DNA of 64,000 nucleotides, from assembly GCA_016177405.1 (NCBI GenBank), contig JACOVG010000013.1, positions 1,858-65,857 on the forward strand, given 5' to 3'. Positions 2,605 through 52,055 of this stretch are shown one piece after another. The notes under the pieces were generated by a model. The model had not been told where the DNA came from. It made no database searches and worked only from the letters and a program-made list of their open reading frames with translations. The position numbers and the translations under genes are program-made. Source of the DNA: Candidatus Omnitrophota bacterium. Lineage in GTDB: Bacteria > Omnitrophota > Gorgyraeia > 1-14-0-20-64-10. Positions within the stretch are counted from its first letter, which is position 1. Every line of letters begins with the position of its first letter.

Positions 2605-7987
<5,383 letters not shown>

Positions 7988-7999
7988 GAGGAGAGGGAG

Positions 8000-10441
<2,442 letters not shown>

Positions 10442-10446
10442 GGCCC

Positions 10447-10824
10447 ATGTGCCCGACCATCTCACAGCTGATCCGAAAGGGCAGGCGCGAGAAGTCCAAG
10501 CGCTCAAAATCTCCGGCCCTTCAGGGCAGGCCGCAGGTGAGGGGGGTTTGTCTTCAGGTGAAGACCATGACCCCCAAGAAGCCCAACTCCGCCTTGCGCA
10601 AGATCTCCCGCGTCAGGCTCACCAACGGGGTGGAGGTCACCTCCTACATCCCCGGGGAGGGCCACAACCTGCAGGAGCACTCGATCGTTCTGGTGCGCGG
10701 CGGAAGGGTCAAGGACCTTCCCGGCGTCCGGTACCACATTGTGCGGGGCACCCTGGATGCCTCCGGGGTGAACCAGCGGCGGAAGTCCCGATCCAAGTAC
10801 GGGGCCAAGAGGCCTAAGGAATAA
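10447..10824 (+). CDS. rpsL: 30S ribosomal protein S12
   Basis: 125 aa, [11 protein letters not shown]...[10 protein letters not shown]. Confidence 0.95.
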
Positions 10825-14415: not shown

Positions 14416-15038
14416 CGCCCGAAACGATCGCGCTCCATGACGCGCAGGGACAATCCACCGGGACGGTTCCGGTTCCGGCCGGTTTCACCGGGCCGGTGGA
14501 CAAGGCTATTCTTTGGCAGGCGATCCGGATGTATCTGGCCAACCAGCGGCAGGGTACGGCCGATACCAAGACCCGGGGCGAGGTTCAAGGCGGCGGCAGG
14601 AAGCCCTGGAAGCAGAAGCACACCGGGCGGGCCAGGGCCGGTTCGATCCGTTCGCCGATCTGGCGAAAGGGTGGAATCGTTTTCGGGCCGCACCCGAGGG
14701 AGTACCGGTATGAGCTGCCCAAGGGTTTGCGTCAGAGGGCGTTGGTGGAAAGCTTAAAGGCAAAGTTTCAGGCGGGGGAGCTGGTCGTGGTGGAGGGTTT
14801 GGACACCCTGGAGCCCAAGACGCGCCCCCTGGGGCGTCTGTTGACGAAGCTGGGGGTCACCGCCAAGGCCTTGGTGGTGATGGATCGGCCCAACCCCATC
14901 CTGGCGAGAATTTCCAGAAACCTGCCGGGCGTCTGGGTGAAGCCGGTTTCCGATTTGAACTGCCACGATGTCCTTCGGTCGAACAAGCTGGTGGTGACCG
15001 CCGCGGCCTTGAAGCAAATCGGGGGGCTTCAGGAATGA
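14412..15038 (+). CDS. rplD: 50S ribosomal protein L4
   Basis: 208 aa, L4 family. Confidence 0.9.
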
Positions 15039-37994: not shown

Positions 37995-38195
37995 ATCGTG
38001 TGAGGGAAGCCCTGTGACCTGCCTGATGCCGGGCAGGAAGTCAGGCGCGGCCCCGCCACTGTAAGCCCGCCTCCGCCAAAGAAGTTGGCGGAGAACCTTA
38101 GCGCAGATCCAGCCACTGTCCACCAAACAAAATGGCGGATGGGAAGGCGCGCTGAAAGGTCGGGCAAGCCAGGAGACCTCGCGGTGTCCCACATA
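37995..38195 (+). promoter_or_regulatory. Cobalamin (B12) riboswitch
   Basis: 5' GGUGUGAGGGAAGCC; CCCGCCACUGUAAGCC; GCCACUGUCC...GGGAAGGCG; B12 box AAGCCAGGAGACCUCG at 38166-38183; SD GGGGGAGG and ATG 38239 follow. Confidence 0.8.
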
Positions 38196-38238
38196 GAAAG
38201 GATTTTCCCGATGTTCCTTCGAGGGGGAGGAACCCAAG

Positions 38239-38817
38239 ATGGCCTCGTACTCTCGTAAGAACGAGGCCTGTTTTGTCTCCGGAGGCCGGGGGCAGGGAGG
38301 CCTCATCCTGGTCACCGGGGGGGCGCGGTCCGGAAAAAGCGCCTTCGCCTTGGGGCTTGCCGACCGGGGCGCCTTTAAGAGGCGCCTCTTTGTCGCCACG
38401 GCGGTCGCTTGCGATGGCGAAATGCGCTCCCGCATCGCCCGCCACCGGAGACAGCGAAACGGCGCTTGGGGGCTGCTGGAGGAACCGCTTCGGCTGCCCG
38501 AGCGCCTGCCCCTGAAGGATCTTCCCGCGGGATCGGTTCTCTTGCTGGATTGCCTTCCCACCTTCGTGACCAACCTTCTTCTGGCCAAGGTTTCTCCCTC
38601 CCGGATTGAAAAGAGGCTTGAGGCCCTGGCGGATTGTTTGCGCGCTCCGGGGTTGACGGCGATTGTGGTGACCAATGAGGTGGGCCAGGGGGTGGTGCCG
38701 GGCTCCGCCTTGGGCAGGAGGTTCCGGGATCTTTTAGGAAACGCGAATCAGACCATTGCTTCCCGCGCCGACGGCGTCTACCTGATGGTGGCCGGGATAC
38801 CCATGAGGATCAAATGA
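38239..38817 (+). CDS. cobU: Adenosylcobinamide kinase / adenosylcobinamide-phosphate guanylyltransferase
   Basis: 192 aa, GGARSGKS P-loop. Confidence 0.85.
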   Translation: MASYSRKNEACFVSGGRGQGGLILVTGGARSGKSAFALGLADRGAFKRRLFVATAVACDGEMRSRIARHRRQRNGAWGLLEEPLRLPERLPLKDLPAGSVLLLDCLPTFVTNLLLAKVSPSRIEKRLEALADCLRAPGLTAIVVTNEVGQGVVPGSALGRRFRDLLGNANQTIASRADGVYLMVAGIPMRIK

Positions 38818-39875
38818 CCAACGAACTGCTTTCCCTTCTTGAGATTCCCGCCATCGATGAAAAGGCGCGCTCCGAGGCGAAGAGGCGGGTCGATTCGCTC
38901 ACCAAACCGCTGGGATCGCTGGGCCGGCTGGAGGATCTGGGCGTTGCCCTGGCCGGGATGACCGGGCGGGTCACCCCCACGCTCGAGCGCAAGGTGATTT
39001 TCACCGTGGCCGGGGACCATGGGGTTGTCCGGGAGGGGGTTTCGGCCTTTCCGCAGGAGGTGACGGCTCAGATGGTCCTGAATTTTCTGCGGGGGGGTGC
39101 TGCCATCAACGTCCTGGCTCGCGCGGCTTCCGCCGAGGTTCTGGTGGTGGATGCCGGTGTCGCGGCCGATCTTCCGAAAGCGGACGGGCTCATCCGCGTC
39201 AAGCTTAAGGCCGGCACCGAAAACATGGCCCAAGGCCCGGCCATGTCCCCGGGGGAGGCCCAGGGCATCGTGGAGGAGGGTTTTCGCCTCTTCAAAAGGA
39301 TTCACGCCGCCCGCGCCATAGACGTCGTCGGCTTGGGAGAGATGGGAATCGGCAACACCACCGCCAGCGCGGCCCTGGCGGCGGCCCTGCTGAACGTGGA
39401 GGCCTCTCTCGTTTCCGGGCGCGGCACAGGGCTCACGGACGGTCAGCTTTCCAAGAAGATTCAGGTGATCGACCAGGCCTTGAAGCTCAACCGGCCTGAT
39501 TCCAAGGACCCGATGGATTGTCTGGCCAAGGTGGGCGGTTTTGAGATCGGCTGTCTGGCCGGCATCACCTTAGCGGCCGCCTCGGCCCGGGTTCCGGTGG
39601 TGATGGACGGCTTTATCTCCACCGTGGCGGCCTTCCTGGCCTATCGGATCTCGCCGGCGGTCAAGCCATTTCTCATCGCCGCGCACCGTTCGGTGGAGCC
39701 CGGCCACAGCCTTTTGCTCAACGCCCTGGAGCTTCGGCCCCTCCTGGAGCTTCAGATGCGGCTGGGAGAAGGGACCGGAGCGGCCCTCGCTTTTCAAATC
39801 CTGGAGGCCTCGGTCCGGATCCTTTCGGAGATGGCCACCTTTTCCGAGGCCCAAGTGAGCGAGGGGACACCGTGA
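38814..39875 (+). CDS. cobT: Nicotinate-nucleotide--dimethylbenzimidazole phosphoribosyltransferase
   Basis: 353 aa CobT family. Confidence 0.9.
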   Translation: MTNELLSLLEIPAIDEKARSEAKRRVDSLTKPLGSLGRLEDLGVALAGMTGRVTPTLERKVIFTVAGDHGVVREGVSAFPQEVTAQMVLNFLRGGAAINVLARAASAEVLVVDAGVAADLPKADGLIRVKLKAGTENMAQGPAMSPGEAQGIVEEGFRLFKRIHAARAIDVVGLGEMGIGNTTASAALAAALLNVEASLVSGRGTGLTDGQLSKKIQVIDQALKLNRPDSKDPMDCLAKVGGFEIGCLAGITLAAASARVPVVMDGFISTVAAFLAYRISPAVKPFLIAAHRSVEPGHSLLLNALELRPLLELQMRLGEGTGAALAFQILEASVRILSEMATFSEAQVSEGTP

Positions 39876-40624
39876 AGTTTCTGCGCGCTCTTCAAGATGC
39901 CTTCTCCTTTCTGACCATCGTTCCGGTCGGTTCCAGGGTGGGAGGGTCCGATCCCTCCCTGCGGATGAGCAGGGCCCTTGCCTGGTTTCCCTTGGTGGGG
40001 GCTGCGGTGGGGGCCGCGGGGGCCGGGGTGGCCTGCGGAGCTTTTCGTTTCTTGCCCTGGCCGGTGGCTTCCGGTTTGGGCTTGGCGGCCGCGGTGCTCT
40101 TAACCGGCGCGCTGCACCTGGATGGTTTTGCCGACACCCTGGACGGTCTCGCGGGCGGGAAGGATCGGCAAGAGTGCCGCCGGATCATGGAGGACGCGCG
40201 CGTGGGGGTTTTTGGGGTGGTGGGTTTGATCCTTCTTCTGGGTTTGAGGTGGGAAGCCCTCCAGAGGACGGGACCGAGCCTTGTCCTCGGAACCTGGGTG
40301 ACCGCGGGGTTGTTCAGCCGCTTGGGGATGGTTTTGTCGGCCCAGTTCTTTCCTTATGGTCCGGGCCGGAAGGGTCTGGGCTCCTGGGTGACCGGCCGCA
40401 AGGTTCCCGGCGCGGTGGCCTGGGCGGTTCTTCTGGCGCTGGGGGGCAGTCTCTTCTTCTGGGTCGTCCCCAAGGTTCTGGTGTGGCTGGGTTTGACCCT
40501 CGGGGTGGCGGCGCTTTTCAACACCTGGGTGAAGAGCCGTCTGGGAGGGATCACCGGGGACACCCTGGGGGCCGTGAATGAGATTCTGGAAACGCTCCTG
40601 CTGATGGCCATGGTGGCGGGGTGA
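39872..40624 (+). CDS. cobS: Adenosylcobinamide-GDP ribazoletransferase (cobalamin synthase)
   Basis: 250 aa multi-TM CobS. Confidence 0.85.
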   Translation: MKFLRALQDAFSFLTIVPVGSRVGGSDPSLRMSRALAWFPLVGAAVGAAGAGVACGAFRFLPWPVASGLGLAAAVLLTGALHLDGFADTLDGLAGGKDRQECRRIMEDARVGVFGVVGLILLLGLRWEALQRTGPSLVLGTWVTAGLFSRLGMVLSAQFFPYGPGRKGLGSWVTGRKVPGAVAWAVLLALGGSLFFWVVPKVLVWLGLTLGVAALFNTWVKSRLGGITGDTLGAVNEILETLLLMAMVAG

Positions 40625-41706
40625 GCCCACACGGCGGGAACATCTGGGAGCTGTGCCGGCGCCGCGGCTTCGACCCCCCAGAGGTCCTTGATGTGAGCGC
40701 GGATCTGAACCCCTTGGGCCCGCCGCCGGGCTGGGAGGGGCGGCTCGCGGAAGGCCTCAAGAGTCTGCGTTGGTATCCGGATCCGGATTATCTGGATTTC
40801 CGCCGCGCCGCGGCTTGCCTTCATGGTCTTGAGCCGGAGTGCATCCTGCCCGGCAACGGAACCGCGGAGCTCATTCACCTTGCGGCCGGCGCTTCACGGT
40901 TCCGGCGGGCAGTGGTGGCCGTTCCAACCTTCACCGAATACGAAAGGGCTCTGGCGGGCAGGGGCAAGCCGATTTCTCTCTGGCCCCTTCAGGCGCCCGG
41001 CTTCAGGCCGCCATCCCTTCCCAGCGATTTCTCCGGCTGTGAGAGCGGCTTGATCTTCCTGTGCAACCCCAACAATCCCACCGGCACCCTCTGGCCCAGG
41101 GAGAGCCTGGTGGAGCTTCTGGCGGCGGCCGGCAAACATCAGGCGACGGTGGTGGTGGACGAGGCCTATCTTGATTTTGTTCCTGATCCCGGGCGTTACT
41201 CCATGGCCGGCCAGGTGAAGCATTTTAAGAATCTCATCGTCCTGCGCTCCCTGACCAAATCGTTCGCCCTGCCGGGTTTGAGGATCGGCTACCTGGCGGC
41301 CGAGCCCGGGATGGCCGCGGCGCTGGCCCAGGAACAGCCTCCTTGGTCTCTGAACGCCTTGGCCGCCGGGTTGGGGCCCTGGCTTCTGGAGCAGTCCGGT
41401 CACCTGGCCGAGAGCCGGCGGGAGCTCACGAAACTGCGCTTGGAATTGCTGGAGGACTTGAGGAGCGTGCCCGGCCTTCGAATCCATCCTTCCGAGGCAA
41501 ACTTCTTCTTGTGCGAGCTGACCGACCCGGAGCTCTCGACGCGGGAGATCCGTCAGGCGCTGGAGGGCCAAGGAATCTTGATTCGGACCTGCGACGACTT
41601 TACCGGTCTCACGCCCGGCCGTTTCTTCCGGGTGGCGGTGAAGCCGCGGCGTGAGAACGAACGGCTCATCACCGCGATGAAGGGGCTCTTCGCGCATGCA
41701 AACTGA
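40621..41706 (+). CDS. cobD: L-threonine-O-3-phosphate decarboxylase (CobD/CobC family, HisC-like)
   Basis: HGGNIWEL N-terminus, PLP fold. Confidence 0.8.
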   Translation: MSPHGGNIWELCRRRGFDPPEVLDVSADLNPLGPPPGWEGRLAEGLKSLRWYPDPDYLDFRRAAACLHGLEPECILPGNGTAELIHLAAGASRFRRAVVAVPTFTEYERALAGRGKPISLWPLQAPGFRPPSLPSDFSGCESGLIFLCNPNNPTGTLWPRESLVELLAAAGKHQATVVVDEAYLDFVPDPGRYSMAGQVKHFKNLIVLRSLTKSFALPGLRIGYLAAEPGMAAALAQEQPPWSLNALAAGLGPWLLEQSGHLAESRRELTKLRLELLEDLRSVPGLRIHPSEANFFLCELTDPELSTREIRQALEGQGILIRTCDDFTGLTPGRFFRVAVKPRRENERLITAMKGLFAHAN

Positions 41707-43198
41707 TTTCCTGATGTTCCAGGGGACCGGCTCCCACGTGGGGAAGTCGGTTCTCGCGACCGCCCTGTGCCGGATTCTCCGTCGAAGGGGGATCCGGGCG
41801 GCCCCCTTCAAGGCGATGAACATGTCCAACAACGCCTGGGTCACGCGCGCAGGCGGCGAGATGGCCTATGCCCAGGCGGCGCAGGCCTGGGCCGCCGGCG
41901 TGGAGCCGGCGGTGGAGATGAACCCTGTTCTCCTGAAGCCGGAGGCGGATCACACCTCCTCCCTCATCGTCCTGGGCAAGCCCGAGGGGCGCCTGCCCGC
42001 GATGGGAATCCGGGAGGTTCGCGAGCGCCTGATCCAGGTGATGGAAGAGAGCTTGAACCGGCTTGCTGGGGAGTTTGAGTTCATCGTGATCGAAGGGGCC
42101 GGGTCCCCCGCCGAGGTGAATCTTGCCCAGTGGGATCTGGCGAACATGGCGGTGGCCCGGAAGGTTCGGGCTCCGGTGATTCTGGTGGGGGACATCGAGC
42201 GGGGCGGGGTCTTTGCTCAAATTGTGGGAACGCTCGCCCTGTTGAATCCGGAGGATCTCGGGCTCGTGCGAGGCTTCGTGATCAACAAGTTCCGGGGGGA
42301 GCGGTCCCTGCTGGATCCGGGTTTAACCTGGCTTGAACAGCGGACCGGCCTTCCGGTTTTCGGCGTTGTTCCGTTTCTTCATGACCTTCGGATCCCGCAG
42401 GAGGACGCGGTGGCCTTGTCCGATCCGGCCGCGCCCCTGCCGAAGCCTTCCGCCAACGGCTCCTGGATCCGGATTCAGGTGGTTCGCTACCCCCAGATCG
42501 CGAACTTCACCGATTTTAAGCCGCTAGAAGAGGAGCCCGGGGTCCAGGTGGAGTACCTCACCCGGCCGCCACCGGACGCCCGGCGGCCCCGGCCCCATCT
42601 CTTGATCCTGCCGGGCACGAAGAGCACGGTCTCGGACCTTCAGTGGCTGAGGGAGCGGGGATTCGAGCCGTACTTGAAGAGCTCTCTCCAAGCCGGTGTC
42701 GAGGTGCTCGGGATCTGCGGCGGTTTCCAGATGCTGGGTGAGTGGATTCGCGATCCGGCCCACGTCGAGTCCGCTTACGCCAGCGTGGCGGGTCTGGGGC
42801 TCCTGCCCGCCTCCACGCGGTTTACGCCTGCCAAGGTGACGGTTCAGGTGGAGGGGGTCCACCCGGAAAGCGGGCTGACCATTCGGGGCTACGAGCTTCA
42901 TGCCGGTTGTCTTGAGGCGAACCATAAGGGAGAGCCGGTTTTCCGGATCACCCGCCGGGGCGGCCAAGCGGCCGACGGTTGGGACGGCTGCCGCCTGGCC
43001 GATCTACCGGTCTGGGGCACCTACCTGCATGGGCTCTTTGATGAGCCCGGCTTCAGGCGCTGGTTTCTGAATCGGCTGCTTCCCCGGGGGGGAGAGGGTG
43101 CGGGTGAGGGAGGGGACCCTTACGATTTCCTGGCCGATCAGGTGGAAAAGGCTCTTAACCTTTCGGAGATTCTTCCTCTATGGAAGCCATCGGTCTAA
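41696..43198 (+). CDS. cobQ: Cobyric acid synthase
   Basis: 500 aa, CobQ/CbiP GATase. Confidence 0.9.
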   Translation: MQTDFLMFQGTGSHVGKSVLATALCRILRRRGIRAAPFKAMNMSNNAWVTRAGGEMAYAQAAQAWAAGVEPAVEMNPVLLKPEADHTSSLIVLGKPEGRLPAMGIREVRERLIQVMEESLNRLAGEFEFIVIEGAGSPAEVNLAQWDLANMAVARKVRAPVILVGDIERGGVFAQIVGTLALLNPEDLGLVRGFVINKFRGERSLLDPGLTWLEQRTGLPVFGVVPFLHDLRIPQEDAVALSDPAAPLPKPSANGSWIRIQVVRYPQIANFTDFKPLEEEPGVQVEYLTRPPPDARRPRPHLLILPGTKSTVSDLQWLRERGFEPYLKSSLQAGVEVLGICGGFQMLGEWIRDPAHVESAYASVAGLGLLPASTRFTPAKVTVQVEGVHPESGLTIRGYELHAGCLEANHKGEPVFRITRRGGQAADGWDGCRLADLPVWGTYLHGLFDEPGFRRWFLNRLLPRGGEGAGEGGDPYDFLADQVEKALNLSEILPLWKPSV

Positions 43199-44124
43199 GG
43201 ATCGTCTTGGCCTACGGCTTGGATCTCCTGCTGGGAGATCCGGCCTGGCTGCCTCATCCGATCCGGGGCTTAGGCTGGGTGATCGAAAGCTCCGAGGCCG
43301 CCCTCCGGCGCCTGATCCGCAGTGAGCTTTTGGGCGGCATTCTTCTTGTTCTTCTGATCGGCGGGGGGACTTGGGGCCTGGTGGGGTTTGTGGTGGGTTG
43401 GGCGGCGCGGATTTCGCCGCTTTTTGCCCTGGGGATGGAGGCGGCCTTCCTCTATATCTGCTTGTCCACCAAGGATCTGGCGGTGGAAAGCTGGCCGGTC
43501 TTCCGCGCCCTGGAGCGAGGGGATCTGCCGTTGGCCAGGCGGAAGCTTTCCATGATCGTGGGAAGGGACACCGGGGAGCTTGACGAACCGGAGGTGACCC
43601 GCGGCACGGTGGAAACGATCGGCGAGAGCCTCATGGATGGCGTGGTCTCACCCCTGTTTTACGCCGCCATCGGCGGGGTGGGGCTGGCCTGCTGTTACAA
43701 GGCGGTCAACACCCTCGATTCCATGGTGGGATACCGGTCGAGCCGTTACCTCCGCTTTGGAAAGGCGTCGGCGGCCGTTGACCGGTGTATGAACGCCCTC
43801 CCCGCCTGGATCACGGCCGGCCTCATCGCGGCGGCCGCGGGATTGCTGGGCTTGCCGGGAGGCGGTTCTCTTCGGGCGTTTCTCAAGAATCCCAGGGCGC
43901 GCCAGGAGAACTCCTGGATCCCCGAGGCGGCGATGGCCGGAGCGCTGGGGGTCCGGTTGGGCGGGGTCAACCGGTATCAGGGTCTTGCCGTTGAAACCCC
44001 TTTTCTGGGTGAGCCGCTTAGGCCGTTAGGCCGGGCGGTCATTCCCCAGGCGATCCGGGTGATGTGGATGGCCTCGGGGCTGTCCCTTTTCGCGGCGCTG
44101 GGCTTGGCTGGGCTTATCCGATGA
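43180..44124 (+). CDS. cbiB: Adenosylcobinamide-phosphate synthase
   Basis: 314 aa membrane CbiB/CobD. Confidence 0.85.
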   Translation: MEAIGLRIVLAYGLDLLLGDPAWLPHPIRGLGWVIESSEAALRRLIRSELLGGILLVLLIGGGTWGLVGFVVGWAARISPLFALGMEAAFLYICLSTKDLAVESWPVFRALERGDLPLARRKLSMIVGRDTGELDEPEVTRGTVETIGESLMDGVVSPLFYAAIGGVGLACCYKAVNTLDSMVGYRSSRYLRFGKASAAVDRCMNALPAWITAGLIAAAAGLLGLPGGGSLRAFLKNPRARQENSWIPEAAMAGALGVRLGGVNRYQGLAVETPFLGEPLRPLGRAVIPQAIRVMWMASGLSLFAALGLAGLIR

Positions 44125-47100
44125 CCAGGGTCCCCAGGCTTCTCATCGCCGGAACGGCGAGCGGGGCGGGCAAGACCACCGTGACCTTGGGGCTGGCGGC
44201 GCTTTTAAGACAAAAGGGTCTGGTGGTCCAGCCGTTTAAGGCGGGCCCGGACTACATCGATTCCGCTTATCACACCCAGGCGGCCGGACGCCCCTGCCGG
44301 AATCTGGACGCCTGGCTCGTTCCCTCCGGCTCCTTGAACGCCATCCTGACCGGGGCGGCCCAGGGGGCCGACCTGTCTTTGGTGGAAGGGATGATGGGCC
44401 TGTTCGATGGGATCGGGCCCACCGGGGAGGAGGCCAGCACCGCGGAGCTGGCCAAGAAGCTCGCCTTGCCGGTTCTTTTGGTGGTGGACGCGGGCTCTTT
44501 CTCCCGCTCGGCCGCCGCCCTGGTGAGAGGCTTCAGGGATTTCGACCGGAAGGTCAAGATCGCCGGCTGTTTCCTGAACCGGGTTTCCTCGGAAGCCCAT
44601 GCCCTCCTGGTGAAGAGGGGGATTGAGACCCTGGCCGGGGTGCCGGTGGTCGGCTTTCTGCCCCAGGACGGCCGCCTTCGGCTGCCCGAGCGCCACCTGG
44701 GGCTGGTCCCTTCCGTCGAGCAAAAGGGCTGGCAGAGGATTCTGGCTCTCCTGGTCAAGCAGATGGAGCACAGCGTGGATGCCGAGGCTCTGCTGCGCTT
44801 GGCCCGGCGCGCGCCCCCCTTGGAGGCAGCAGCTATTTTAGGGTCATTGCGAGGAGCCGGCCAGAGGCTGGCGACGAAGCAATCTCAGGGATTGCTTCGC
44901 CCCTTCGGGGCTCGCAATGACATGAGGAGGGTGCCCATCGCGGTCGCCAGGGACGAGGCGTTTCACTTTTATTATCCGGAAAATTTGGAGCTTCTTGAAA
45001 AGTTCGGGGCGGAGATGGTTCCCTTCAGCCCCCTAAAGGATCGGAGCCTTCCGCGGGGGGCTGCCGGGCTCTATCTGGGAGGGGGATTCCCCGAGGTTTT
45101 CGCCGAGCCGCTTTCCAGGAACGCTTCCCTCCATCGGGAGATTCGGGAGAAGGCGGCCGCTGGGCTGCCCACCTATGCCGAGTGCGGGGGTTTGATGTAT
45201 CTTTCGCGAAGCATCCGTTCCACAAAGAGAAGGAGCTTTTCCATGGTGGGACTTGTCCCGGCCGAGATTCGGATGACCGACCGGCTTCAGCATTTCGGAT
45301 ACAAGAAACTTCGGGCTTGCCGGACCACGGTCCTGGCGAGGGCAGGGGAGAAGGCCAGGGGCCACGAGTTCCATCACTCGCAAGCCGTGGGGATTCCCGT
45401 GGAGGAGCGGGCCCCTTATGAGGCCCGGTCGGCCGGCGGCGAGGGCAGGCGCCTGGAGGGGTATGCCTACGGCAGTCTCCTGGCTTCCTATGTCCACCTT
45501 CATTTCATGAGCCAGCCGGCTTGGGCTAAGCGGTTGGTTGAGGCCGCGCGCCGCTGGTCAGGAGTTCTTCTTTTTCTCACCGCTTACAGCTTGCAGCTTA
45601 TCGCCGTCTCTTTCGCGGAGGAGCCGACCCGCCTGGAGGAGGTGGTCGTCACCGCCACCAAGGCCAAGACCCCGGCCAAGGAGGTGACCCGGGCGGTTTC
45701 GGTGATACCGGCCGAGCGCTTAAGCGTCGTCAAGGGAGGATTTGTCTCGCAGGGCTTGAGCGACGTGCCGGAGACCCTGGTCCGCCGGACCGGGTCCATC
45801 GGACGCACGACGGCTGTGGTGATTCGGGGGGCGTCGGCGACCCAGGTCCATGTGACCGTGGATGGCGCCCATGTGGCCAGCCCAACCACCGGCTCCTTCG
45901 ATTTCAACCATTTCACGCCGGATAATCTGGAACGGATCGAGATCCTCCGCGGGCCCGGCAGCACCCTCTACGGCGCGGACGCCATGGGAGGCGTGATCAA
46001 TCTCGTCACCCGGCGCGGCGAAGGGCCGTTCACCTTCTCCGCCACCTCGGAGTATGGCACCCTTTTGGACACCTTTCGGGAAGCCGCCTCCATGCAAGGG
46101 GCCTCGGGGCCGTGGCATCTGTCGGCCTCCTCCTCCCGGATGGACGCCAACGGCCTAAGCCAGAACGACGACTACCAAAATCTGAATCTTTCCACACGGA
46201 TTGGCTATGACCTGCCCAACCAGGCAACGGCGGATCTGACCCTGCGCCACATCTGGGCCGTGGTCGGGGTGGACGACGGCCCCTTTCGCCCGGACACGAA
46301 CCGGAGGGACCGGGAACGGCAGACCATCGGGACGGTCCGCCTGGAAGCCCCGGTGACGGCCTGGTGGAGCCAAACCTGGCGCTTCTCCACGGCCATCTCG
46401 AACTTCATCGACAACGATCCCTCCAACGGCGGCACCCAAACCGACAGCCTCTTCAAGCTGGATACCGAGCGCTATGGCGCCGAATGGATGAACCGCTTCA
46501 CTCCGGTTTCCTGGGACGCGCTGACCGTGGGTCTGGAGTTCGAAGACCGGGAGGCCGACAACCGGAGTTTTTCGAAAACCCAGGTCACGCGCGCCGCCTA
46601 CCTCCAGAATCAGTGGCGGCCCGTTGATCCCCTGACGGTGGTTGCCGGTTTCCGGTTCTTTCGGGAGAGCGCCTTCGGCAGCGATCAGGTCTTCGACCTG
46701 TCGGCGGCCTATTTCCACGAGCCCTGGGGTCTCAAGGCGCGCGGGGGCTATGGCCAGGGCTTCCGTCCTCCCACCCTGAACGAGCTTTTCTTTCCCGGCT
46801 TTGGTGTCCCCAACCTCTCTCCGGAAAAGAGCGAAACCTGGGAGATGGGCTTTGACCAGGTGCTCTGGGACAACCGGATCAATTGGTCCGGCACCCTCTT
46901 TCGGACGGAGTACGAGGATCTGATTCAGACCGTCCGGGTCTCGTCCACCGTTTCCGCGCCTCAAAATGTGGGCAAGTCGAGGATTCGCGGGGCGGAGCTG
47001 GAGCTTGAGCTCAAACCCTGGGACCCTTGGACCTTGACCGGCTCCTACACCCACCTGGAGGCCAACGAGGATCCCAGCGACGAGGAGCTCTTGAGGGTGC

Positions 47101-47384
47101 CCAAGAACACCGTGGGCTTCAGCGCGGGGTTTGCCCCCTCCAAGAGGTGGGACGCCCGCCTGGAGGGACTGCTGGTCTCAAGCCGGGAGGAGTCCACCGG
47201 CACCAACTCCCGCAACAAGACCAAGGGGTACCTCAAGCTCGATGCCCTGCTGCAGTACCGCTTCAAGCCGTGGTTGAGAGGCCATTTGAGGGTGGACAAC
47301 CTGACCGACCGCCAGTATGCCGAGGTGCTGGGTTTTCCGGCCGAGGGGCTCGCGGCCTCCGTGGGGCTGACGGTGGAGCGATGA
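44121..47384 (+). CDS. cbiA: Cobyrinic acid a,c-diamide synthase (CbiA/CobB, first ~460 aa) reading through without stop into a TonB-dependent receptor
   Basis: ATG 44121 overlaps the cbiB stop; CbiA homology ends near ...YVHLHFMSQPAWAKRLVEAARRW; same frame continues into the receptor. Confidence 0.7.
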   Translation: MTRVPRLLIAGTASGAGKTTVTLGLAALLRQKGLVVQPFKAGPDYIDSAYHTQAAGRPCRNLDAWLVPSGSLNAILTGAAQGADLSLVEGMMGLFDGIGPTGEEASTAELAKKLALPVLLVVDAGSFSRSAAALVRGFRDFDRKVKIAGCFLNRVSSEAHALLVKRGIETLAGVPVVGFLPQDGRLRLPERHLGLVPSVEQKGWQRILALLVKQMEHSVDAEALLRLARRAPPLEAAAILGSLRGAGQRLATKQSQGLLRPFGARNDMRRVPIAVARDEAFHFYYPENLELLEKFGAEMVPFSPLKDRSLPRGAAGLYLGGGFPEVFAEPLSRNASLHREIREKAAAGLPTYAECGGLMYLSRSIRSTKRRSFSMVGLVPAEIRMTDRLQHFGYKKLRACRTTVLARAGEKARGHEFHHSQAVGIPVEERAPYEARSAGGEGRRLEGYAYGSLLASYVHLHFMSQPAWAKRLVEAARRWSGVLLFLTAYSLQLIAVSFAEEPTRLEEVVVTATKAKTPAKEVTRAVSVIPAERLSVVKGGFVSQGLSDVPETLVRRTGSIGRTTAVVIRGASATQVHVTVDGAHVASPTTGSFDFNHFTPDNLERIEILRGPGSTLYGADAMGGVINLVTRRGEGPFTFSATSEYGTLLDTFREAASMQGASGPWHLSASSSRMDANGLSQNDDYQNLNLSTRIGYDLPNQATADLTLRHIWAVVGVDDGPFRPDTNRRDRERQTIGTVRLEAPVTAWWSQTWRFSTAISNFIDNDPSNGGTQTDSLFKLDTERYGAEWMNRFTPVSWDALTVGLEFEDREADNRSFSKTQVTRAAYLQNQWRPVDPLTVVAGFRFFRESAFGSDQVFDLSAAYFHEPWGLKARGGYGQGFRPPTLNELFFPGFGVPNLSPEKSETWEMGFDQVLWDNRINWSGTLFRTEYEDLIQTVRVSSTVSAPQNVGKSRIRGAELELELKPWDPWTLTGSYTHLEANEDPSDEELLRVPKNTVGFSAGFAPSKRWDARLEGLLVSSREESTGTNSRNKTKGYLKLDALLQYRFKPWLRGHLRVDNLTDRQYAEVLGFPAEGLAASVGLTVER
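45507..47384 (+). CDS. TonB-dependent outer-membrane receptor, BtuB-like (candidate independent start at internal ATG 45507)
   Basis: Signal-like MSQPAWAKRLVEAARRWSGVLLFLTAYSLQLIAVSFA, TonB box EEVVVTA, plug domain IRGASATQV...GGVINLVTRRG, beta-barrel. Confidence 0.6.
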   Translation: MSQPAWAKRLVEAARRWSGVLLFLTAYSLQLIAVSFAEEPTRLEEVVVTATKAKTPAKEVTRAVSVIPAERLSVVKGGFVSQGLSDVPETLVRRTGSIGRTTAVVIRGASATQVHVTVDGAHVASPTTGSFDFNHFTPDNLERIEILRGPGSTLYGADAMGGVINLVTRRGEGPFTFSATSEYGTLLDTFREAASMQGASGPWHLSASSSRMDANGLSQNDDYQNLNLSTRIGYDLPNQATADLTLRHIWAVVGVDDGPFRPDTNRRDRERQTIGTVRLEAPVTAWWSQTWRFSTAISNFIDNDPSNGGTQTDSLFKLDTERYGAEWMNRFTPVSWDALTVGLEFEDREADNRSFSKTQVTRAAYLQNQWRPVDPLTVVAGFRFFRESAFGSDQVFDLSAAYFHEPWGLKARGGYGQGFRPPTLNELFFPGFGVPNLSPEKSETWEMGFDQVLWDNRINWSGTLFRTEYEDLIQTVRVSSTVSAPQNVGKSRIRGAELELELKPWDPWTLTGSYTHLEANEDPSDEELLRVPKNTVGFSAGFAPSKRWDARLEGLLVSSREESTGTNSRNKTKGYLKLDALLQYRFKPWLRGHLRVDNLTDRQYAEVLGFPAEGLAASVGLTVER

Positions 47385-47773
47385 CCCTGGCTATGAGTTG
47401 GGGGCTTGTGCGGTGCGCCGGAGTCTTACTGATGCTGGGGCTGGCGGCGGGGTGCGCGACGGTGCCGAGAGAGTTTCCGGTGACGCTGGAGGTGGACTAT
47501 GGCCCAGCCGGAAAGCCGGCCATCCATGAGACGGTCATCGTCTCTCGTGGGGCGACGCCGGAGGCGGCCACCACCGCGGTTTTCCCGATTGAGAAAGGGT
47601 CGGTCTGCTGTGACCCCCGGGAGACCTCTGCCATCGACGGAGTGGCTGCCGATCCCGCGGCCAACCGCTGGTGGGTGGTCTCGGTGAACGGCTCGAAGAA
47701 GGTCTCCCCCTATAAAACCAAACTCAAGCTGGGTGACAAGATCCGTTGGGAATACCGCCAATATGAGCAGTAA
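47381..47773 (+). CDS. Small lipoprotein with transcobalamin-beta/DUF4430-like motif (putative corrinoid-binding)
   Basis: Lipobox LGLAAGC; C-terminus RWWVVSVNGSKKVSPYKTKLKLGDKIRWEYRQY. Confidence 0.55.
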   Translation: MTLAMSWGLVRCAGVLLMLGLAAGCATVPREFPVTLEVDYGPAGKPAIHETVIVSRGATPEAATTAVFPIEKGSVCCDPRETSAIDGVAADPAANRWWVVSVNGSKKVSPYKTKLKLGDKIRWEYRQYEQ

Positions 47774-48476
47774 GATGAGAGCCGGCTTTTTCACACTCCT
47801 CTTGTTGGCGTCCGCCTCTTCCGGGTACGCGCAGGAGGTTCGTGGAAGGGTGAGGGTCGATGGTTCACCGCCTGCCCAAGAGACGATCACGATTCAGGCC
47901 AAGAGCAAGGCGTATCCCATCGAGGGCTGCGGGCCGATTCAGAAGGCTTCGCCGAAGCTCGAGGTGAGCGCCGCTGGCGGGGTTAAAAACGCTGTGGTCT
48001 GGGCGGAGATTCCAGCTCAGGTCCAGCCAGAGCCCCTTCATCTCCTGATGGACCAGAAGGCGTGCGTTTTCAGCCCTCATGTCGTGGCCGCCGCGGCGGG
48101 TCAATCGTTGGCGATCCGGAACTCCGACCGAGTGATCCACAACGTCCGGATCTTCCGGGAGGGCAGGCCCGAGATGCTGATGCACCGGTGGCAGAAGGTG
48201 GATGGGGCCGACATCGTCTGGAGATTTGATGAACCGGGCCGGTACCTCGTCCGGTGCGGGGTCCACCCTTGGATGTACGGCTGGGTCTTCGTCGCCCCCG
48301 GGCGGTCCGTTGCCGTGACGGATGAAGAGGGACGCTTCGAGCTGACCGGTCTGCCGGAGGGCCGACATACCCTCCGCGTCTGGCATGAGACGCTGGGAAA
48401 CCGGGAGCTTGAGATGGAGGTAGGGAGCCAACCCCTGGATCTTGCCCCGGTGGTTTTTCCAAAGAAGGAGGCCTGA
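47763..48476 (+). CDS. Secreted cupredoxin-like (type-1 Cu site-like) plus CarboxypepD_reg-like domain protein
   Basis: Signal peptide; HNV...YLVRCGVHPWMYG; C-terminal VTDEEGRFELTGLPEGRHTLRVWHE. Confidence 0.55.
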   Translation: MSSKMRAGFFTLLLLASASSGYAQEVRGRVRVDGSPPAQETITIQAKSKAYPIEGCGPIQKASPKLEVSAAGGVKNAVVWAEIPAQVQPEPLHLLMDQKACVFSPHVVAAAAGQSLAIRNSDRVIHNVRIFREGRPEMLMHRWQKVDGADIVWRFDEPGRYLVRCGVHPWMYGWVFVAPGRSVAVTDEEGRFELTGLPEGRHTLRVWHETLGNRELEMEVGSQPLDLAPVVFPKKEA

Positions 48477-49096
48477 TGTTTTACGAGTGGTTTAAGCTGG
48501 GCGGCCCGGTGATGTGGGCGTTGCTCGCCTGTTCCATCGTGGCGCTCACGGTGATCAGCGAGCGGTTCTTCTTTTGGAGGGAGATCCGGCGCTCGCGGGA
48601 CGCCGGCGCCGTGGAGTCGATGCTGGCGCTCATCGAGCAGGGGCAAATCTCCCAGGCGCTGGCCAGGGGACGCGCCCTCTCCGATCCGGTGGCCCGGGTG
48701 CTGACCCGCGGCCTGGAGCATTGGCCCGCGGCCGTGACCGGCGCCCTGGAGGCCCAGGCCCAGGAGGAGCTGCGGCCGATGCGCCGGTACCTCGGCGTTC
48801 TGGAGACGACCATCACCCTGGCTCCGCTTTTGGGCATCTACGGAACGATCACCGGCATGATCCGGGCCTTCGGTTTCTTGAGCCGGGCCGGGATCACCGA
48901 CCCCCATCAGGTGGCCGCGGGGATCGCCGAGGCGCTGATCACCACGGCGGCTGGGCTGACCATTGCGATTGTCAGCATTCCGCCGTACAATTTCTTCACC
49001 GCCAAGACCGAGGAGGTGGCGCACGACATGGAGCGCCAGGCGACGGCGCTTGAGCTCTTGGCGGGGCGCAAACGATCGGCGGAGGGTTCCTCGTGA
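48476..49096 (+). CDS. exbB: MotA/TolQ/ExbB proton-channel protein
   Basis: 206 aa, 3 TM. Confidence 0.85.
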   Translation: MFYEWFKLGGPVMWALLACSIVALTVISERFFFWREIRRSRDAGAVESMLALIEQGQISQALARGRALSDPVARVLTRGLEHWPAAVTGALEAQAQEELRPMRRYLGVLETTITLAPLLGIYGTITGMIRAFGFLSRAGITDPHQVAAGIAEALITTAAGLTIAIVSIPPYNFFTAKTEEVAHDMERQATALELLAGRKRSAEGSS

Positions 49097-49509
49097 GGAT
49101 TTATTTTCCCCGTTCCTCGAAACCTAGGATCGAGATGATTCCCCTGATCGATGCCTTCTTCCTGCTGTTGGCCTTCTTCATGTCGTCGGTGATCACCATG
49201 GAGGTGGTTCAGGGGCTTCCGCTGGAACTGCCGCGGGCCGGGCCTTCCAAACCGCTGGCGTCAGGTGACCGGTGGATGGTGACCGTTACCCGGGAGGGCG
49301 CGGTTCAGCTTGAGGGGCGGGCGGTGACCTTGGAGGAATTGCGCTCGCGTTTGGCGGGCCATCCGGATCTGGAGTCGCTTCGGGTGGGCATTCGTGCCGA
49401 TCAGGCCACCCCTTACGAACGGGTGGTGCAGGTGTTGGCGGCGGCCCAGGCCAGCGGGGTCAAACGGGTTAACCTGCTGACCTCCGGCCGAAAGGAAAAG
49501 GAACGTTGA
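49093..49509 (+). CDS. exbD: Biopolymer transport protein ExbD/TolR
   Basis: 138 aa; IPLIDAFFLLLAFFM. Confidence 0.85.
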   Translation: MRIYFPRSSKPRIEMIPLIDAFFLLLAFFMSSVITMEVVQGLPLELPRAGPSKPLASGDRWMVTVTREGAVQLEGRAVTLEELRSRLAGHPDLESLRVGIRADQATPYERVVQVLAAAQASGVKRVNLLTSGRKEKER

Positions 49510-50039
49510 GCTTAAGGTTGGCGAAATCCGCCCTGCTGTCGGCTGGGGTGCATGCCCTGTTCATTCTCCCCGCCATCCACTTCGGCTTGGCCGGCGCTCC
49601 TCCCAAGGCGGACGTGGTTCGGGGCCGGGCAATCCTGGAGCTGGAGTGGGTGGACCCCCAGCCCTTGGACAAAGAGGAAGGGGAAGAGGAGCAGCGGGAG
49701 AAGTTGGGATTCAAGCCCCAGGAGGCGGTGGTGACCCCGGGGGCTTTTTCGGTGGCCGCGCCGGCGGGTTTTCGCAATCCGGCGCCGGCCTATCCCTGGG
49801 CGGCGAGGCTTCGAGGCTGGCAGGGAACGGTGGTGCTTCGGGTTTCGGTCGCCGCCTCCGGTCTGCCGGAGAGGGTGGAGATCGCCGTAAGCTCGGGCCA
49901 CGCGGTTTTGGATCAGGCGGCCCTGGAGGCTTTAAGGGCTTGGCGGTTTGTTCCGGCTCGGAAGGGCTCTCAAGCGGTGGCTGGGGTGGTGGAGATTCCG
50001 GTGACATTCAAATTGGATGAATCGAAGGAGGAGTTATGA
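49506..50039 (+). CDS. tonB: Energy transducer TonB
   Basis: TTG start; N-terminal TM, Glu/Pro linker, TonB-C GTVVLRVSVAASGLPERVEIAVSSGHAVLDQAALEALRAWRF. Confidence 0.75.
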   Translation: MSLRLAKSALLSAGVHALFILPAIHFGLAGAPPKADVVRGRAILELEWVDPQPLDKEEGEEEQREKLGFKPQEAVVTPGAFSVAAPAGFRNPAPAYPWAARLRGWQGTVVLRVSVAASGLPERVEIAVSSGHAVLDQAALEALRAWRFVPARKGSQAVAGVVEIPVTFKLDESKEEL

Positions 50040-50548
50040 AGCTGACTTGGGTTCTGGTGGCGGTGGGGGGTTTGATGGCGGCGGCGTTTCAACATGAACT
50101 GGGCGCGGCTCCCATCTTGGGTGCTCTCTTGTGCGCGGCCTGCTTCTTGAGGCCTCGGGATCTTTTCTGGGTGGGCTTGGGCGGGATGCTGGTTCGTGAG
50201 CTCGCGATCGGCATTTCCGTCTTCAGCGCGGTGCGCCTGGTCGCGGTGGCGCTGGTGGCGGCGGCGCTGGTGGCCCTGAAGGTTCGCCCCAGCTTTCGCT
50301 CCATCCTGACTGGACTGCTGGTTTCCTCGCCGATCTTTCATCTGTCCCTTTCGGTTGGAGACTGGCTGACCGGCTTCTGCGGCGTTTGGCCCAAGACGGC
50401 CGCGGGCTTGACCGGAGCGATTGTCACGGCGCTGCCTTACTTTCAGCGGTCGCTGGTCGGAGATTTCCTTTTCTCCAGCCTCTTCTTGGGGCTCTACACC
50501 GGTTTGGCTTATTGGACCACCGCGGTCCGGACCCGCGCCGCTTCGTGA
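50036..50548 (+). CDS. Polytopic inner-membrane protein, family unassigned
   Basis: 170 aa, ~5 TM, translationally coupled between the two TonB genes. Confidence 0.5.
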   Translation: MKLTWVLVAVGGLMAAAFQHELGAAPILGALLCAACFLRPRDLFWVGLGGMLVRELAIGISVFSAVRLVAVALVAAALVALKVRPSFRSILTGLLVSSPIFHLSLSVGDWLTGFCGVWPKTAAGLTGAIVTALPYFQRSLVGDFLFSSLFLGLYTGLAYWTTAVRTRAAS

Positions 50549-51240
50549 GACTGAAAGGGGCCCTGGGCTGGTCGTTGGCGCTCCACGCGGGAGTGCTGGC
50601 CCTGCCTTTGCCGCGCGGCTTCATCGCTTACGTCCCGACCGGCAAGCCCCTTTCCGTTACCTTTATGGGATCTCCGTCTGTCGCAGCAGCGGCGGCGGCC
50701 GCGAAGCAGGCGGCTGTGAAAGCCCAGGATTTGGTGGAGGTCAAGCGCCCCTCGGTAAGCCCTGCCGCGGCGGCCGTCGAAAAACCCCGGCGGGCTCCGC
50801 CTCCGGCCCCGGCCCGGCTTGAGAAACCGGCGCCCAAACCCGCCGCTCCGGCTCCGTCCCGGAAGGAGTTGGCCGGGCCGCTCAAGGGTCCGGCGCCGCC
50901 TGAACATCAAGCGGAGAGATCCCGGGATGACGGCGGGGCGTCAATCCAGATGCTGTCGGGCTCTTTCCTCTCCCTGGAGCATCGGCAAAAGGTGAGGGAA
51001 CACCTGAAGGGCCGCTTGACCTTTCCGGCGGTCTGGATTCGGGGTTTTGTCCATATGCGCTTGACCCTGGAGCCCGAAGGGCGGTTGGTGACTGCCCAGG
51101 TTCTGGAGAGCTCTGACCCCAAGCTTTCCGAGGCTGCCCTCCGGGAGGTCCAGCAGGCGGCCCCTTATCCCGCCTTCTCCCGCGACGTTTCCGAGGCCGC
51201 CCTCCAGTACGACTTCCTCATCCGCTACGAGCCCGACTAA
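50545..51240 (+). CDS. Second TonB-C/TolA-like domain protein with Ala/Pro-rich linker
   Basis: GTG 50545 overlaps the upstream stop; C-terminal GFVHMRLTLEPEGRLVTAQVLESS...AAPYPAF. Confidence 0.6.
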   Translation: MRLKGALGWSLALHAGVLALPLPRGFIAYVPTGKPLSVTFMGSPSVAAAAAAAKQAAVKAQDLVEVKRPSVSPAAAAVEKPRRAPPPAPARLEKPAPKPAAPAPSRKELAGPLKGPAPPEHQAERSRDDGGASIQMLSGSFLSLEHRQKVREHLKGRLTFPAVWIRGFVHMRLTLEPEGRLVTAQVLESSDPKLSEAALREVQQAAPYPAFSRDVSEAALQYDFLIRYEPD

Positions 51241-51293
51241 CCTCCCCCCGCCCTCTGTGTGGGGGTTTGCCGGCCACGGGTCCTCGCAGACCA

Positions 51294-51790
51294 CCCCGCC
51301 TTTGGTCTGGGGGAGAGGGCTCGCTCCGGAGATCTGGATGCCAGCTTCCGAGGCCCCCGCCCGGTGTGTGGGGGTTTGCCGGCCACGGGTCCTGCCGCCT
51401 GCGGGTACTCCCGCCGTCCGTCCTCGGCCCCTCGACTCCGTTCGTCCAGAGCTTGTCGAAGGACGAACGTCGCTCGGGACCTGCGGGCGTGGCGGCGGGT
51501 CCTCCCTCCGGCGTCACCCGTGTCCGCAGTCTCACCCCACACCCCGATCCGTCTCTTCGTAAGAGAGCACCCCGCCCTGGGGATGGGGGAAGGGCGAGCC
51601 TTAGGAGATCCTGGCGGTGGTCCGCAGGACCAGGGCGCGCAGGAGCGAAGCGCAGCGGAAACGGCGCCATTGGGTCTGGCCGCTCCCCCGCTGGATTTGG
51701 GCGAGGGTGGACGCCGAGGTTCTGCAAGCGGAGCGCCGAGCACCCAGCCAGATCTCCGGAGCGAGCCCTCTCCCCCAGACCAAGGGCGGG
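51294..51790. repeat. Non-coding GC-rich element bounded by 44-bp inverted repeats (51294-51337 / 51747-51790, 1 mismatch) with a 28-bp direct repeat (51257-51284, 51366-51393)
   Basis: Direct sequence comparison; internal perfect hairpin CGTTCGTCC-N13-GGACGAACG at ~51450-51480. Confidence 0.7.
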
Positions 51791-51832
51791 GGAACTCCGA
51801 TGAACTGGGGAGTCGGAATGTTTCGAGAAGGG

Positions 51833-51861
51833 TTGACGGGGGGGCGGGGGCGTTGTATCAT
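51833..51861 (+). promoter_or_regulatory. Sigma70-type promoter of rpsU: -35 TTGACG, 17-nt spacer, -10 TATCAT
   Basis: Near-consensus hexamers ~25 nt upstream of SD AAGGAG and ATG 51885. Confidence 0.6.
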
Positions 51862-51884
51862 GATTTTAAAGGAGTTACGAACTC

Positions 51885-52055
51885 ATGCCGGTTGTCGAAG
51901 TCCGAGAAAACGAGCCTCTAGAGAAGGCCTTAAGGCGCCTTAAAAAGAAGGTCGAACGGGAAGGGATCCTCAAGGTCGTTCGGGCCCGGAAGCATTACGA
52001 GAAACCTTCGGTCGCTCGGCGGCGAAAGCTGCGAGAAGGCCGAAGACGATTTTAG
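51885..52055 (+). CDS. rpsU: 30S ribosomal protein S21
   Basis: 56 aa [42 protein letters not shown]...; not in the ORF track (<60 aa). Confidence 0.85.

Follow-up and report, generated by a model that had tools for sequence, protein, structure and literature searches.

A putative cobamide assembly and uptake operon with a conserved CbiA-receptor fusion behind a single cobalamin riboswitch in a Candidatus Omnitrophota bacterium

Results and Discussion

Gene content of the operon

We examined a 64,000-nt stretch of chromosomal DNA from a Candidatus Omnitrophota bacterium (GenBank assembly GCA_016177405.1, contig JACOVG010000013.1, positions 1,858 to 65,857), hereafter referred to as the window, in which a cobalamin riboswitch is followed by genes for late cobamide assembly, a TonB-dependent receptor, its energizing proteins, and three small accessory proteins. 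The most unusual feature of this locus is a conserved fusion, in which the cbiA gene lacks a stop codon and runs in frame into the receptor gene.

The operon comprises 14 open reading frames (ORFs), all on the + strand, which fill positions 38239-51240 without an intergenic gap. Neighboring genes are joined by eight 4-nt ATGA, GTGA, or TTGA overlaps, one 1-nt overlap, and three overlaps of 11-19 nt, and most of them have a clear GGAG-type Shine-Dalgarno (SD) site. Gene identities were assigned by Pfam and NCBIfam profile searches. The first six genes encode CobU, a cobinamide kinase/guanylyltransferase (38239-38817; PF02283, E 2.9e-52); CobT, a dimethylbenzimidazole phosphoribosyltransferase (38814-39875; PF02277, E 2.9e-131), joined by an ATGA overlap; CobS, the membrane-bound cobalamin-5'-phosphate synthase (39872-40624; PF02654, E 1.3e-48), joined by a GTGA overlap; CobD, a threonine-phosphate decarboxylase (40621-41706; TIGR01140, 300.8 bits against an equivalog cut-off of 290.55); CobQ, a cobyric acid synthase with CbiA and GATase_3 domains (41696-43198); and CbiB, the membrane-bound adenosylcobinamide-phosphate synthase (43180-44124; PF03186, E 3.9e-84). 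These biosynthetic genes are ordinary. They are followed by the fused cbiA-receptor ORF of 1087 residues (44121-47384), in which a part matching NF002204 precedes Plug and beta-barrel domains, and then by the genes for a DUF4430 protein, a cupredoxin, ExbB, ExbD, TonB, a DUF6580 membrane protein, and a second TonB-like protein, the last of which ends the operon at 51240.

A preliminary description of this DNA had listed 15 consecutive genes with near-universal translational overlaps. The tight same-strand run, the overlaps, and every gene identity proposed there hold, while the count is 14 since cbiA has no stop codon. The absence of BtuFCD from the operon, also proposed there, agrees with our searches: neither tblastn with BtuF-like and BtuR sequences from related loci nor Pfam scans of the flanking ORFs revealed a homologue of BtuF, BtuCD, or BtuR in the window. 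Pfam scans likewise found no energy-coupling factor (ECF) module (EcfT/EcfA) in the operon or elsewhere in the window.

The riboswitch and its expression platform

The Rfam covariance search identified a cobalamin riboswitch aptamer at 38003-38179 (+) (RF00174; 58.6 bits against a gathering score of 31.5, E 5.8e-12), with a B12 box, GCCACTG, at 38112. This was the sole Rfam family match across the window, and it bears out the earlier proposal that a canonical cobalamin riboswitch heads the gene run. The riboswitch is an ordinary member of RF00174, and cobU starts 60 nt downstream of it. An RF00174 element also lies at the equivalent position upstream of cobU in six of the related loci described below (L003, L004, L010, L015, L031, and L044).

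The putative expression platform (38180-38275, +) has a predicted RNA fold of -46.1 kcal/mol (z -2.7). It includes a predicted hairpin at 38212-38233, formed by GUUCCUUC and GGAGGAAC; the latter is the cobU SD sequence, which would be occluded by pairing with the former. A second predicted hairpin covers the cobU AUG and is followed by a short U-run, UGUUUUG. The folding fits translational repression, possibly with some attenuation, a regulatory role that we read from the predicted structure. When cobamide is plentiful, the riboswitch fold would most likely occlude the cobU ribosome-binding site. Because every gene overlaps its neighbor, the repression would then propagate through all 13 kb by translational coupling and polarity.

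CbiA and the receptor share one reading frame

The ORF spanning 44064-47384 contains no stop codon between the CbiA domains and the Plug domain; its true start codon, the ATG at 44121, overlaps the stop codon of cbiB. The CbiA domain, a cobyrinic acid a,c-diamide synthase (44121-45557, +), scores 516.6 bits against the NF002204 equivalog cut-off of 254, carries the invariant glutamine amidotransferase Cys motif YAECGG at residues 352-357, and ends in the conserved tail FVxAARRW without a stop. A signal-peptide-like linker follows (45543-45617, +), in which the two Arg residues of the CbiA tail form the n-region, WSGVLLFLTAYSLQLIAV the h-region, and SFA the c-region before a predicted cleavage point. 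The join as a whole reads ...HLHFMSQPAWAKRLVEAARRWSGVLLFLTAYSLQLIAVSFA-EEPTRLEEVVVTAT..., that is, the C-terminal tail of CbiA, two Arg, about 20 uncharged residues, an AxA-type site, and the TonB box. The mature receptor would occupy 45618-47384 (+).

A search of 5.8 billion proteins retrieved ten further full-length fusions of 1067-1096 residues, at 44-67% identity and 100% coverage. Across the window and these ten aligned homologues, the linkers differ in sequence and length, yet they keep the same layout of basic residues, 14-24 uncharged residues, and an AxA-type site before the TonB box. With two further fused loci (L005 and L036), about 13 distinct fused lineages are known, the window included, and in the fused lineages the AxA-type site stands 5-8 residues ahead of the TonB box, down to 44% identity. 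In unfused relatives, the receptor gene has a normal SD site, ATG, and signal peptide, and CbiA ends 5-12 residues past the same AAR+W motif.

A sequencing or assembly error does not account for the missing stop codon, as the identical ORF occurs in two separate Logan assemblies and the ten fused homologues have different linkers. Nor does a suitably placed stop codon occur at the junction in the other two frames.

One ORF without a stop between two proteins, together with an internal n-h-c segment and an AxA-type site, gives the layout of a polyprotein of the FbcH type. CbiA and the receptor would accordingly be translated as one chain, so that receptor production in the window would depend on read-through from cbiA. 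The hydrophobic linker would serve as an internal Sec signal peptide, which signal peptidase I would cut after SFA, releasing the mature receptor to the outer membrane and leaving CbiA anchored by its tail in the inner membrane, alongside the membrane-bound CbiB and CobS. Cleavage would be needed because the TonB box lies only about 7 residues past the hydrophobic segment, and an uncleaved chain could not work.

Alternatively, the fused state might have no use and simply be tolerated: a functionless by-product of the deletion of an internal riboswitch, with useful receptor made from internal starts and the read-through product degraded. We regard this as unlikely. A ribosome translating cbiA cannot terminate at the junction, so that the fusion is necessarily made. 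Most fused linkers do have a Met just before the hydrophobic stretch, but a start at the sole linker Met of L003 would leave six hydrophobic residues and no positive n-region, and the linker of L036 contains no Met at all. Moreover, in the window and in three fused homologues (P0003, P0004, and P0005), the positive n-region is supplied by the CbiA tail AAR[RK] itself. L004 retains an SD site (AAAGGAA) and a GTG codon within its linker, so that some receptor may be made independently there, whereas the window has no SD site with a start codon ahead of the h-region. The interspersion of fused and unfused forms, described next, suggests that the transition is frequent and easy, as this alternative would expect; against this stands the preservation of the open frame and of the AxA-type site 5-8 residues ahead of the TonB box in about 13 lineages. 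Processing of a single polyprotein therefore remains the reading that we prefer for the junction.

On a rough neighbor-joining tree of the receptor part, calculated without support values, fused and unfused forms are interspersed in both main clades. A single origin of the fusion is unsupported by this tree, which suggests that the transition happened more than once or was moved by recombination; the number of events is uncertain at this resolution.

CbiA is also fused to other partners in public proteins (P0011-P0016 and other matches), namely the membrane cobalt S-component CbiM (PF01891, about 701 residues), Peptidase_S41, CbiC, CbiX, CobU, CobS, CbiB, and an aminotransferase. Given this variety of partners, C-terminal fusion of CbiA is common. 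The receptor fusion is the sole envelope-crossing one among the CbiA fusions found.

The receptor and its energizing proteins

The receptor part has a BtuB-type architecture, with an N-terminal TonB box (EEVVVTAT, 45636-45659), a Plug domain (PF07715), and a beta-barrel of the 22-strand type (PF00593). Its best family is TIGR01779 TonB-B12, at 219.1 bits. On this basis we describe the receptor as BtuB-like, with a corrinoid as its probable substrate.

The genes exbB (48476-49096; PF01618, E 1.2e-30), exbD (49093-49509; PF02472, E 1.4e-24), and tonB (49506-50039, TTG start; PF03544, E 8.2e-22) follow the two genes downstream of the receptor, and the operon closes with the second TonB-like gene (50545-51240, GTG start; PF03544, E 1.3e-06). 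MotA_ExbB, ExbD, and TonB_C domains are thus all encoded here, and both TonB proteins carry an SxxxH motif in the transmembrane (TM) helix, SAGVH in the first and SLALH in the second, which also has an Ala/Pro-rich linker. The TonB_C match of the second protein is weak, scoring 29.2 bits against a Pfam cut-off of 24.6 and 26.4 against 27.1 in NCBIfam. A gene for this protein follows DUF6580 in most related loci with enough downstream sequence. The BtuB-like receptor would be energized by the operon-encoded ExbB-ExbD complex and the two TonB proteins. In the literature, we found no description of a TonB system or a dedicated TonB paralogue under a B12 riboswitch.

The three accessory proteins

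The DUF4430 protein (47381-47773; PF14478) is probably a lipoprotein, judged by its lipobox-like LAAGC sequence. It contains an invariant CC-D-x-RE motif (VCCDPRE in the window), and its PF14478 match (29.1 bits against 23.8) covers the C-terminal 45 residues only. NCBIfam has no name for it, and we found no functional study of a bacterial DUF4430 protein in the literature.

The second accessory protein (47763-48476) combines cupredoxin and CarboxypepD_reg features, has a signal peptide, and is predicted to be secreted. In alignments with pseudoazurin, H126, C165, H168, and M171 (His...Cys-x2-His-x2-Met) fall on the type-1 copper ligands, and the four ligands are invariant in three orthologues and in 26 diverse representatives at 29-58% identity. 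The protein scores below the family cut-offs (PF00127, 19.2 against 21.2; TIGR02375 pseudoazurin, 21.7 against 109.85), and the TIGR02375 score indicates that it is not a pseudoazurin orthologue.

Distant Planctomycetes homologues of the cupredoxin (L019-L021) were rejected as relatives of the module, as they have no other operon genes and no B12 context. In one of these (L021, a Fimbriiglobus metagenome-assembled genome (MAG), 9143-10693), the match to the cupredoxin is found in the C-terminal part of an ORF that carries sigma-70 regions 2 and 4 at its N-terminus, in a neighborhood unrelated to B12. At L024 (459-1946), a distant cupredoxin/CarboxypepD_reg homologue (35% identity) lies immediately after a gene for a dihaem cytochrome c, with no DUF4430 protein as partner, a context that fits an electron-transfer role for the wider cupredoxin family.

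The third accessory protein, DUF6580 (50036-50548), is a membrane protein of 170 residues, identical to HYS41_03505, and has no NCBIfam match. Its structure model, built from 35 sequences with a predicted local distance difference test score (pLDDT) of 90.4, shows six helices in an ECF S-component fold. C33 and C115 are invariant and H20 is nearly invariant; C33 lies in helix 2 and C115 in the loop between helices 5 and 6, neither of them in loop 3. If the usual S-component topology applies, the loops holding C115 and H20 would face the periplasm. We found nothing on DUF6580 in the literature. BtuM, a solitary transporter of the S-component type, ligates cobalt through a Cys and needs no ECF module (PMC6072759). 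DUF6580 shares its fold but has no detectable sequence similarity to it, so that it would be an analogue of BtuM rather than a member of that family. The model makes it a candidate inner-membrane corrinoid transporter and probably a replacement for BtuCD, in which case the absence of BtuFCD is explained rather than puzzling.

The contexts in which the three proteins recur bear on their substrate. The DUF4430-cupredoxin pair stands by itself in L022 and L026. L025 has, directly after a bluB gene (TIGR02476, 269 bits), genes for DUF4430 (51% identity), cupredoxin (37%), and DUF6580 (45%), and then a BtuF-like gene. The rearranged locus L027 (44% identical) has the trio contiguous after ExbBD-TonB, then a binding protein of class III (haem/siderophore/B12) and BtuR (TIGR00708, 227 bits), and many metagenome relatives have BtuF-like, BluB, and BtuR proteins after DUF6580. 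No riboswitch was found within the available sequence of the short loci L022, L024, L025, and L026. This company of BluB, BtuR, and BtuF-like genes ties the trio to the handling of cobamides rather than of metal ions.

A rival reading, that the uptake half serves to import cobalt or one of its chelates for de novo synthesis, is accordingly one that we consider quite improbable; the receptor would then take up a metal complex, DUF4430 and the cupredoxin would bind metal in the periplasm, and DUF6580 would be a CbiM-like metal S-component. B12 riboswitches are known to control cobalt transporters too, but the best family of the receptor is TonB-B12. The operon includes the amidases cbiA and cobQ, which act before the cobinamide stage; the trio, however, co-occurs with BluB, BtuR, and the cobinamide-salvage genes cobU, cobT, cobS, and cbiB. 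The cupredoxin has a predicted metal site, the matches of the DUF4430 model include 3u7z, an entry described as a 'putative metal binding protein', and a ZIP/ZupT-like metal transporter gene lies inside the module of L004; in many loci, on the other hand, the binding protein beside DUF6580 is Peripla_BP_2, of the haem/siderophore/B12 class and not of the metal-ion type. Finally, the N-terminus of DUF6580, MKLTW, lacks the N-terminal Met-His metal-binding motif that CbiM reportedly shows in its structures.

Related loci and regulatory architectures

Related loci were gathered by searching genome and metagenome collections with an alignment of the cupredoxin and by looking up the contigs of homologues. 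The resulting set of about 30 loci (L numbers here) consists mostly of Omnitrophota MAGs, some being labelled 'uncultured Planctomycetia'. Their common gene order, determined by tblastn with proteins from the window, is cobU-T-S-D-Q-cbiB-cbiA-receptor-DUF4430-cupredoxin-[exbB-exbD]-tonB-DUF6580-tonB2. The module always contains genes for DUF4430, the cupredoxin, DUF6580, and a TonB-like protein, whereas ExbB-ExbD is optional and absent from L003/L044, L011, L016, L030/L031, and L033.

The junction between cbiA and the receptor occurs in three states. In the first, the genes are separate and 240-480 bp apart, with a second RF00174 element in the gap, immediately upstream of the receptor gene (L008, L009, L010, L011, L018, L028, L031, and L038); L010 and L031 show both this internal riboswitch and the one upstream of cobU. 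In the second, the genes are separate, with a short gap or an overlap and no second riboswitch (L007, L014, and L015/L034). In the third, they are fused, as in the window and the other fused lineages, and in the window the receptor would be controlled through the single riboswitch of the operon.

The second riboswitch thus stands directly ahead of the receptor-DUF4430-cupredoxin-ExbBD-TonB-DUF6580-TonB unit in eight related lineages, so that the uptake half by itself forms a B12-riboswitch unit. Compared with these sequences, the single-riboswitch operon of the window is a merged form of the ordinary two-unit layout. This outcome upholds the earlier suggestion that the energizing complex and the accessory proteins belong to a B12-controlled uptake module. 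The survey of genomic context that had been proposed as a check gave the same answer, as the module is conserved with cob genes in about 30 Omnitrophota or PVC-type (Planctomycetes-Verrucomicrobia-Chlamydiae) loci. The single-riboswitch super-operon can no longer be seen as a separate design; it is one of three interchanging architectures, with two riboswitches, with one riboswitch and separate genes, or with one riboswitch and fused genes. What had been called a candidate novel corrinoid-capture system keeps that candidate status.

It is highly improbable that TonB/ExbBD, the cupredoxin, and DUF6580 constitute an envelope module of general purpose that only happens to adjoin the B12 genes and has its own promoters and no B12 control: a weak sigma-70-like site inside exbB (48963-48991), the B12-unrelated contexts of cupredoxin homologues, and the lack of ExbBD in some versions of the module could be cited for it, but the operon has no intergenic space, its promoter-like sites are at the level of chance (2 found against 1.2 +/- 1.1 expected), exactly this module follows a cobalamin riboswitch in eight lineages and is conserved together with cob genes, and it is the next gene, rpsU, that has a spacer of 645 bp and a promoter-like site of its own.

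Two loci show further rearrangements. L004 (Omnitrophica MAG GCA_016196375.1) has the ZIP/ZupT-like metal transporter gene inserted between exbD and tonB (14046-14741), a Peripla_BP_2 binding protein after DUF6580, and an Omp85-family gene after the second TonB. L005 has two exbB-exbD pairs in one module (5108-6132 and 7327-8321), flanking tonB-DUF6580.

Genomic setting

Core chromosomal genes flank the operon: rpoB, rpoC, ribosomal protein genes, secY, and rpoA lie on the upstream side, and rpsU and the genes for an M16 peptidase and biotin carboxylase on the downstream side. The rpsU-M16 peptidase neighborhood is also found 3' of the operon in L003 and on the P0006 contig, and the locus therefore holds a conserved chromosomal position. 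A repeat-rich spacer of 645 bp (51240-51885) separates the operon from the small rpsU gene (ribosomal protein S21, 51886-52055). It contains a 47-nt inverted repeat (51294-51340 and 51745-51791, 96% complementary, with 404 nt between the arms), a third, degenerate copy of the arm (51564-51610), and a 40-nt direct repeat (51245-51284 and 51354-51393, 95%). These repeats look like a MITE-like (miniature inverted-repeat transposable element) or REP-like (repetitive extragenic palindromic) element. A sigma-70-like promoter, TTGACG-17-TATCAT (10/12 matches), lies at 51833-51861, just 5' of rpsU. Overall, the promoter and terminator scans gave counts at or below chance with an E. coli-type consensus.

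A model of the operon

Taken as a whole, the locus is best explained as a chromosomal operon for cobamide salvage, assembly, and uptake, including the fusion and the import route set out here; we hold this explanation with rather more confidence than doubt. Under cobamide scarcity, the enzymes of late assembly (CbiA, CobQ, CbiB, CobD, CobU, CobT, and CobS) would be made, along with a complete import route. The putative DUF4430 lipoprotein, which may resemble the beta domain of transcobalamin, would receive the corrinoid in the periplasm. The putative secreted type-1 copper protein would act on the corrinoid or partner the lipoprotein, possibly in a one-electron Co(III)/Co(II) step, and the solitary S-component-like DUF6580 would carry the corrinoid across the inner membrane in the fashion of BtuM, in place of BtuCD.

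Besides the start site retained in L004, several findings weigh against this model. The receptor misses the BtuB family cut-offs by a wide margin (219.1 against 599.7 for TIGR01779; 145.6 against 836 for NF007926). The beta-grasp model of DUF4430 has matches to transcobalamin, haptocorrin, and intrinsic factor in their beta domains, which speaks for a corrinoid link, but it matches RnfH, SAMP1, and MoaD equally well. A phmmer search with DUF6580 against all PDB chains, BtuM included, gave no match at E <= 10, and its closest structural matches are the folate, riboflavin, and thiamine S-components, so that the fold is silent on the substrate. The cupredoxin belongs to a large family (4285 representatives at E <= 1e-10) that is not B12-specific in its wider membership, as the contexts of L019-L021 and L024 illustrate. 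The chance-level count of promoter-like sites within the operon was obtained with an E. coli-type consensus, which is uninformative for this phylum.

More tentatively, and aware that the parts may well not all hold together, we propose jointly that an enzyme/outer-membrane-receptor polyprotein is split by signal peptidase at an internal signal peptide, leaving the enzyme tail-anchored, and that a DUF4430-cupredoxin-DUF6580 route takes corrinoids from periplasm to cytoplasm, replacing BtuFCD in PVC-group bacteria. In such a route, the cupredoxin may perform a redox or ligand-exchange step on the cobalt.

The locus is a real new variant of B12 salvage and uptake loci, whose functions we infer from sequence, models, and context. 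About half of the B12-dependent Gram-negative bacteria lack BtuCDF, and the passage of corrinoids through their inner membrane is largely unknown (PMC6072759). The locus nominates a candidate of three small proteins, DUF4430, cupredoxin, and DUF6580, for this step. If the proposal is true, a copper redox protein in a B12 import module would be a previously undescribed link between copper and the cobalt cofactor. That a cytoplasmic amidotransferase is recurrently joined in frame to an outer-membrane barrel is unusual; should its processing follow the prediction, the fusion would count among the rare bacterial polyproteins cut by signal peptidase, and as a natural case of an enzyme tail-anchored by a retained signal peptide. 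The locus family also displays, in living lineages, the collapse of two riboswitch-controlled units into one operon. For Omnitrophota and cobalamin, our literature search found only a remark on the presence of the pathway.

Comparison with known systems

In the btuB and cob/cbi operons of E. coli and Salmonella, as here, RF00174 controls a TonB-dependent corrinoid receptor and, separately, the cob genes, and L010 and L031 show exactly this two-riboswitch layout. The window differs in merging both units behind one riboswitch, in the absence of BtuCD, and in a receptor that falls below the BtuB cut-offs. In addition, unlike enterobacterial btuB, the receptor unit has its own ExbB-ExbD, two TonB proteins, and three extra proteins.

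HasB of Serratia and TonB2 of Vibrio are TonB proteins dedicated to one substrate, encoded with or without ExbBD in the operon of one receptor and co-regulated with it. The present system differs from this type in its control by a B12 riboswitch instead of Fur or sigma factors, and in having two TonB-like genes.

The FbcH polyprotein of Bradyrhizobium japonicum, which holds the cytochrome b-c1 components, is reportedly cut at an internal signal peptide. The CbiA-receptor ORF is similar in encoding two mature proteins with an internal signal-peptide-like segment and a signal-peptidase site between them, cleavage here being predicted. In contrast to FbcH, a soluble cytoplasmic amidotransferase here precedes an outer-membrane beta-barrel, and the only functional link between the two is B12 metabolism.

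BtuM of Thiobacillus denitrificans, a solitary protein of the S-component type (PMC6072759), differs from DUF6580 in belonging to another Pfam family with no detectable sequence similarity, and in having its conserved Cys in loop 3 rather than in TM2 and loop 5. Moreover, DUF6580 is always accompanied by the DUF4430 protein and the cupredoxin, and often by a Peripla_BP_2 binding protein.

In the BtuB-BtuG-BtuH/BtuJ loci of Bacteroides (PMC6143338, PMC10404256, PMC8941943), riboswitch-controlled receptor genes are likewise joined by added lipoproteins for corrinoid capture. The accessory proteins there are the beta-propeller BtuG and DUF4465-type binders, to which the DUF4430 beta-grasp protein and the cupredoxin found here are unrelated. 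The present loci belong to the PVC/Omnitrophota lineage, and they also encode the energizing complex and the biosynthetic enzymes.

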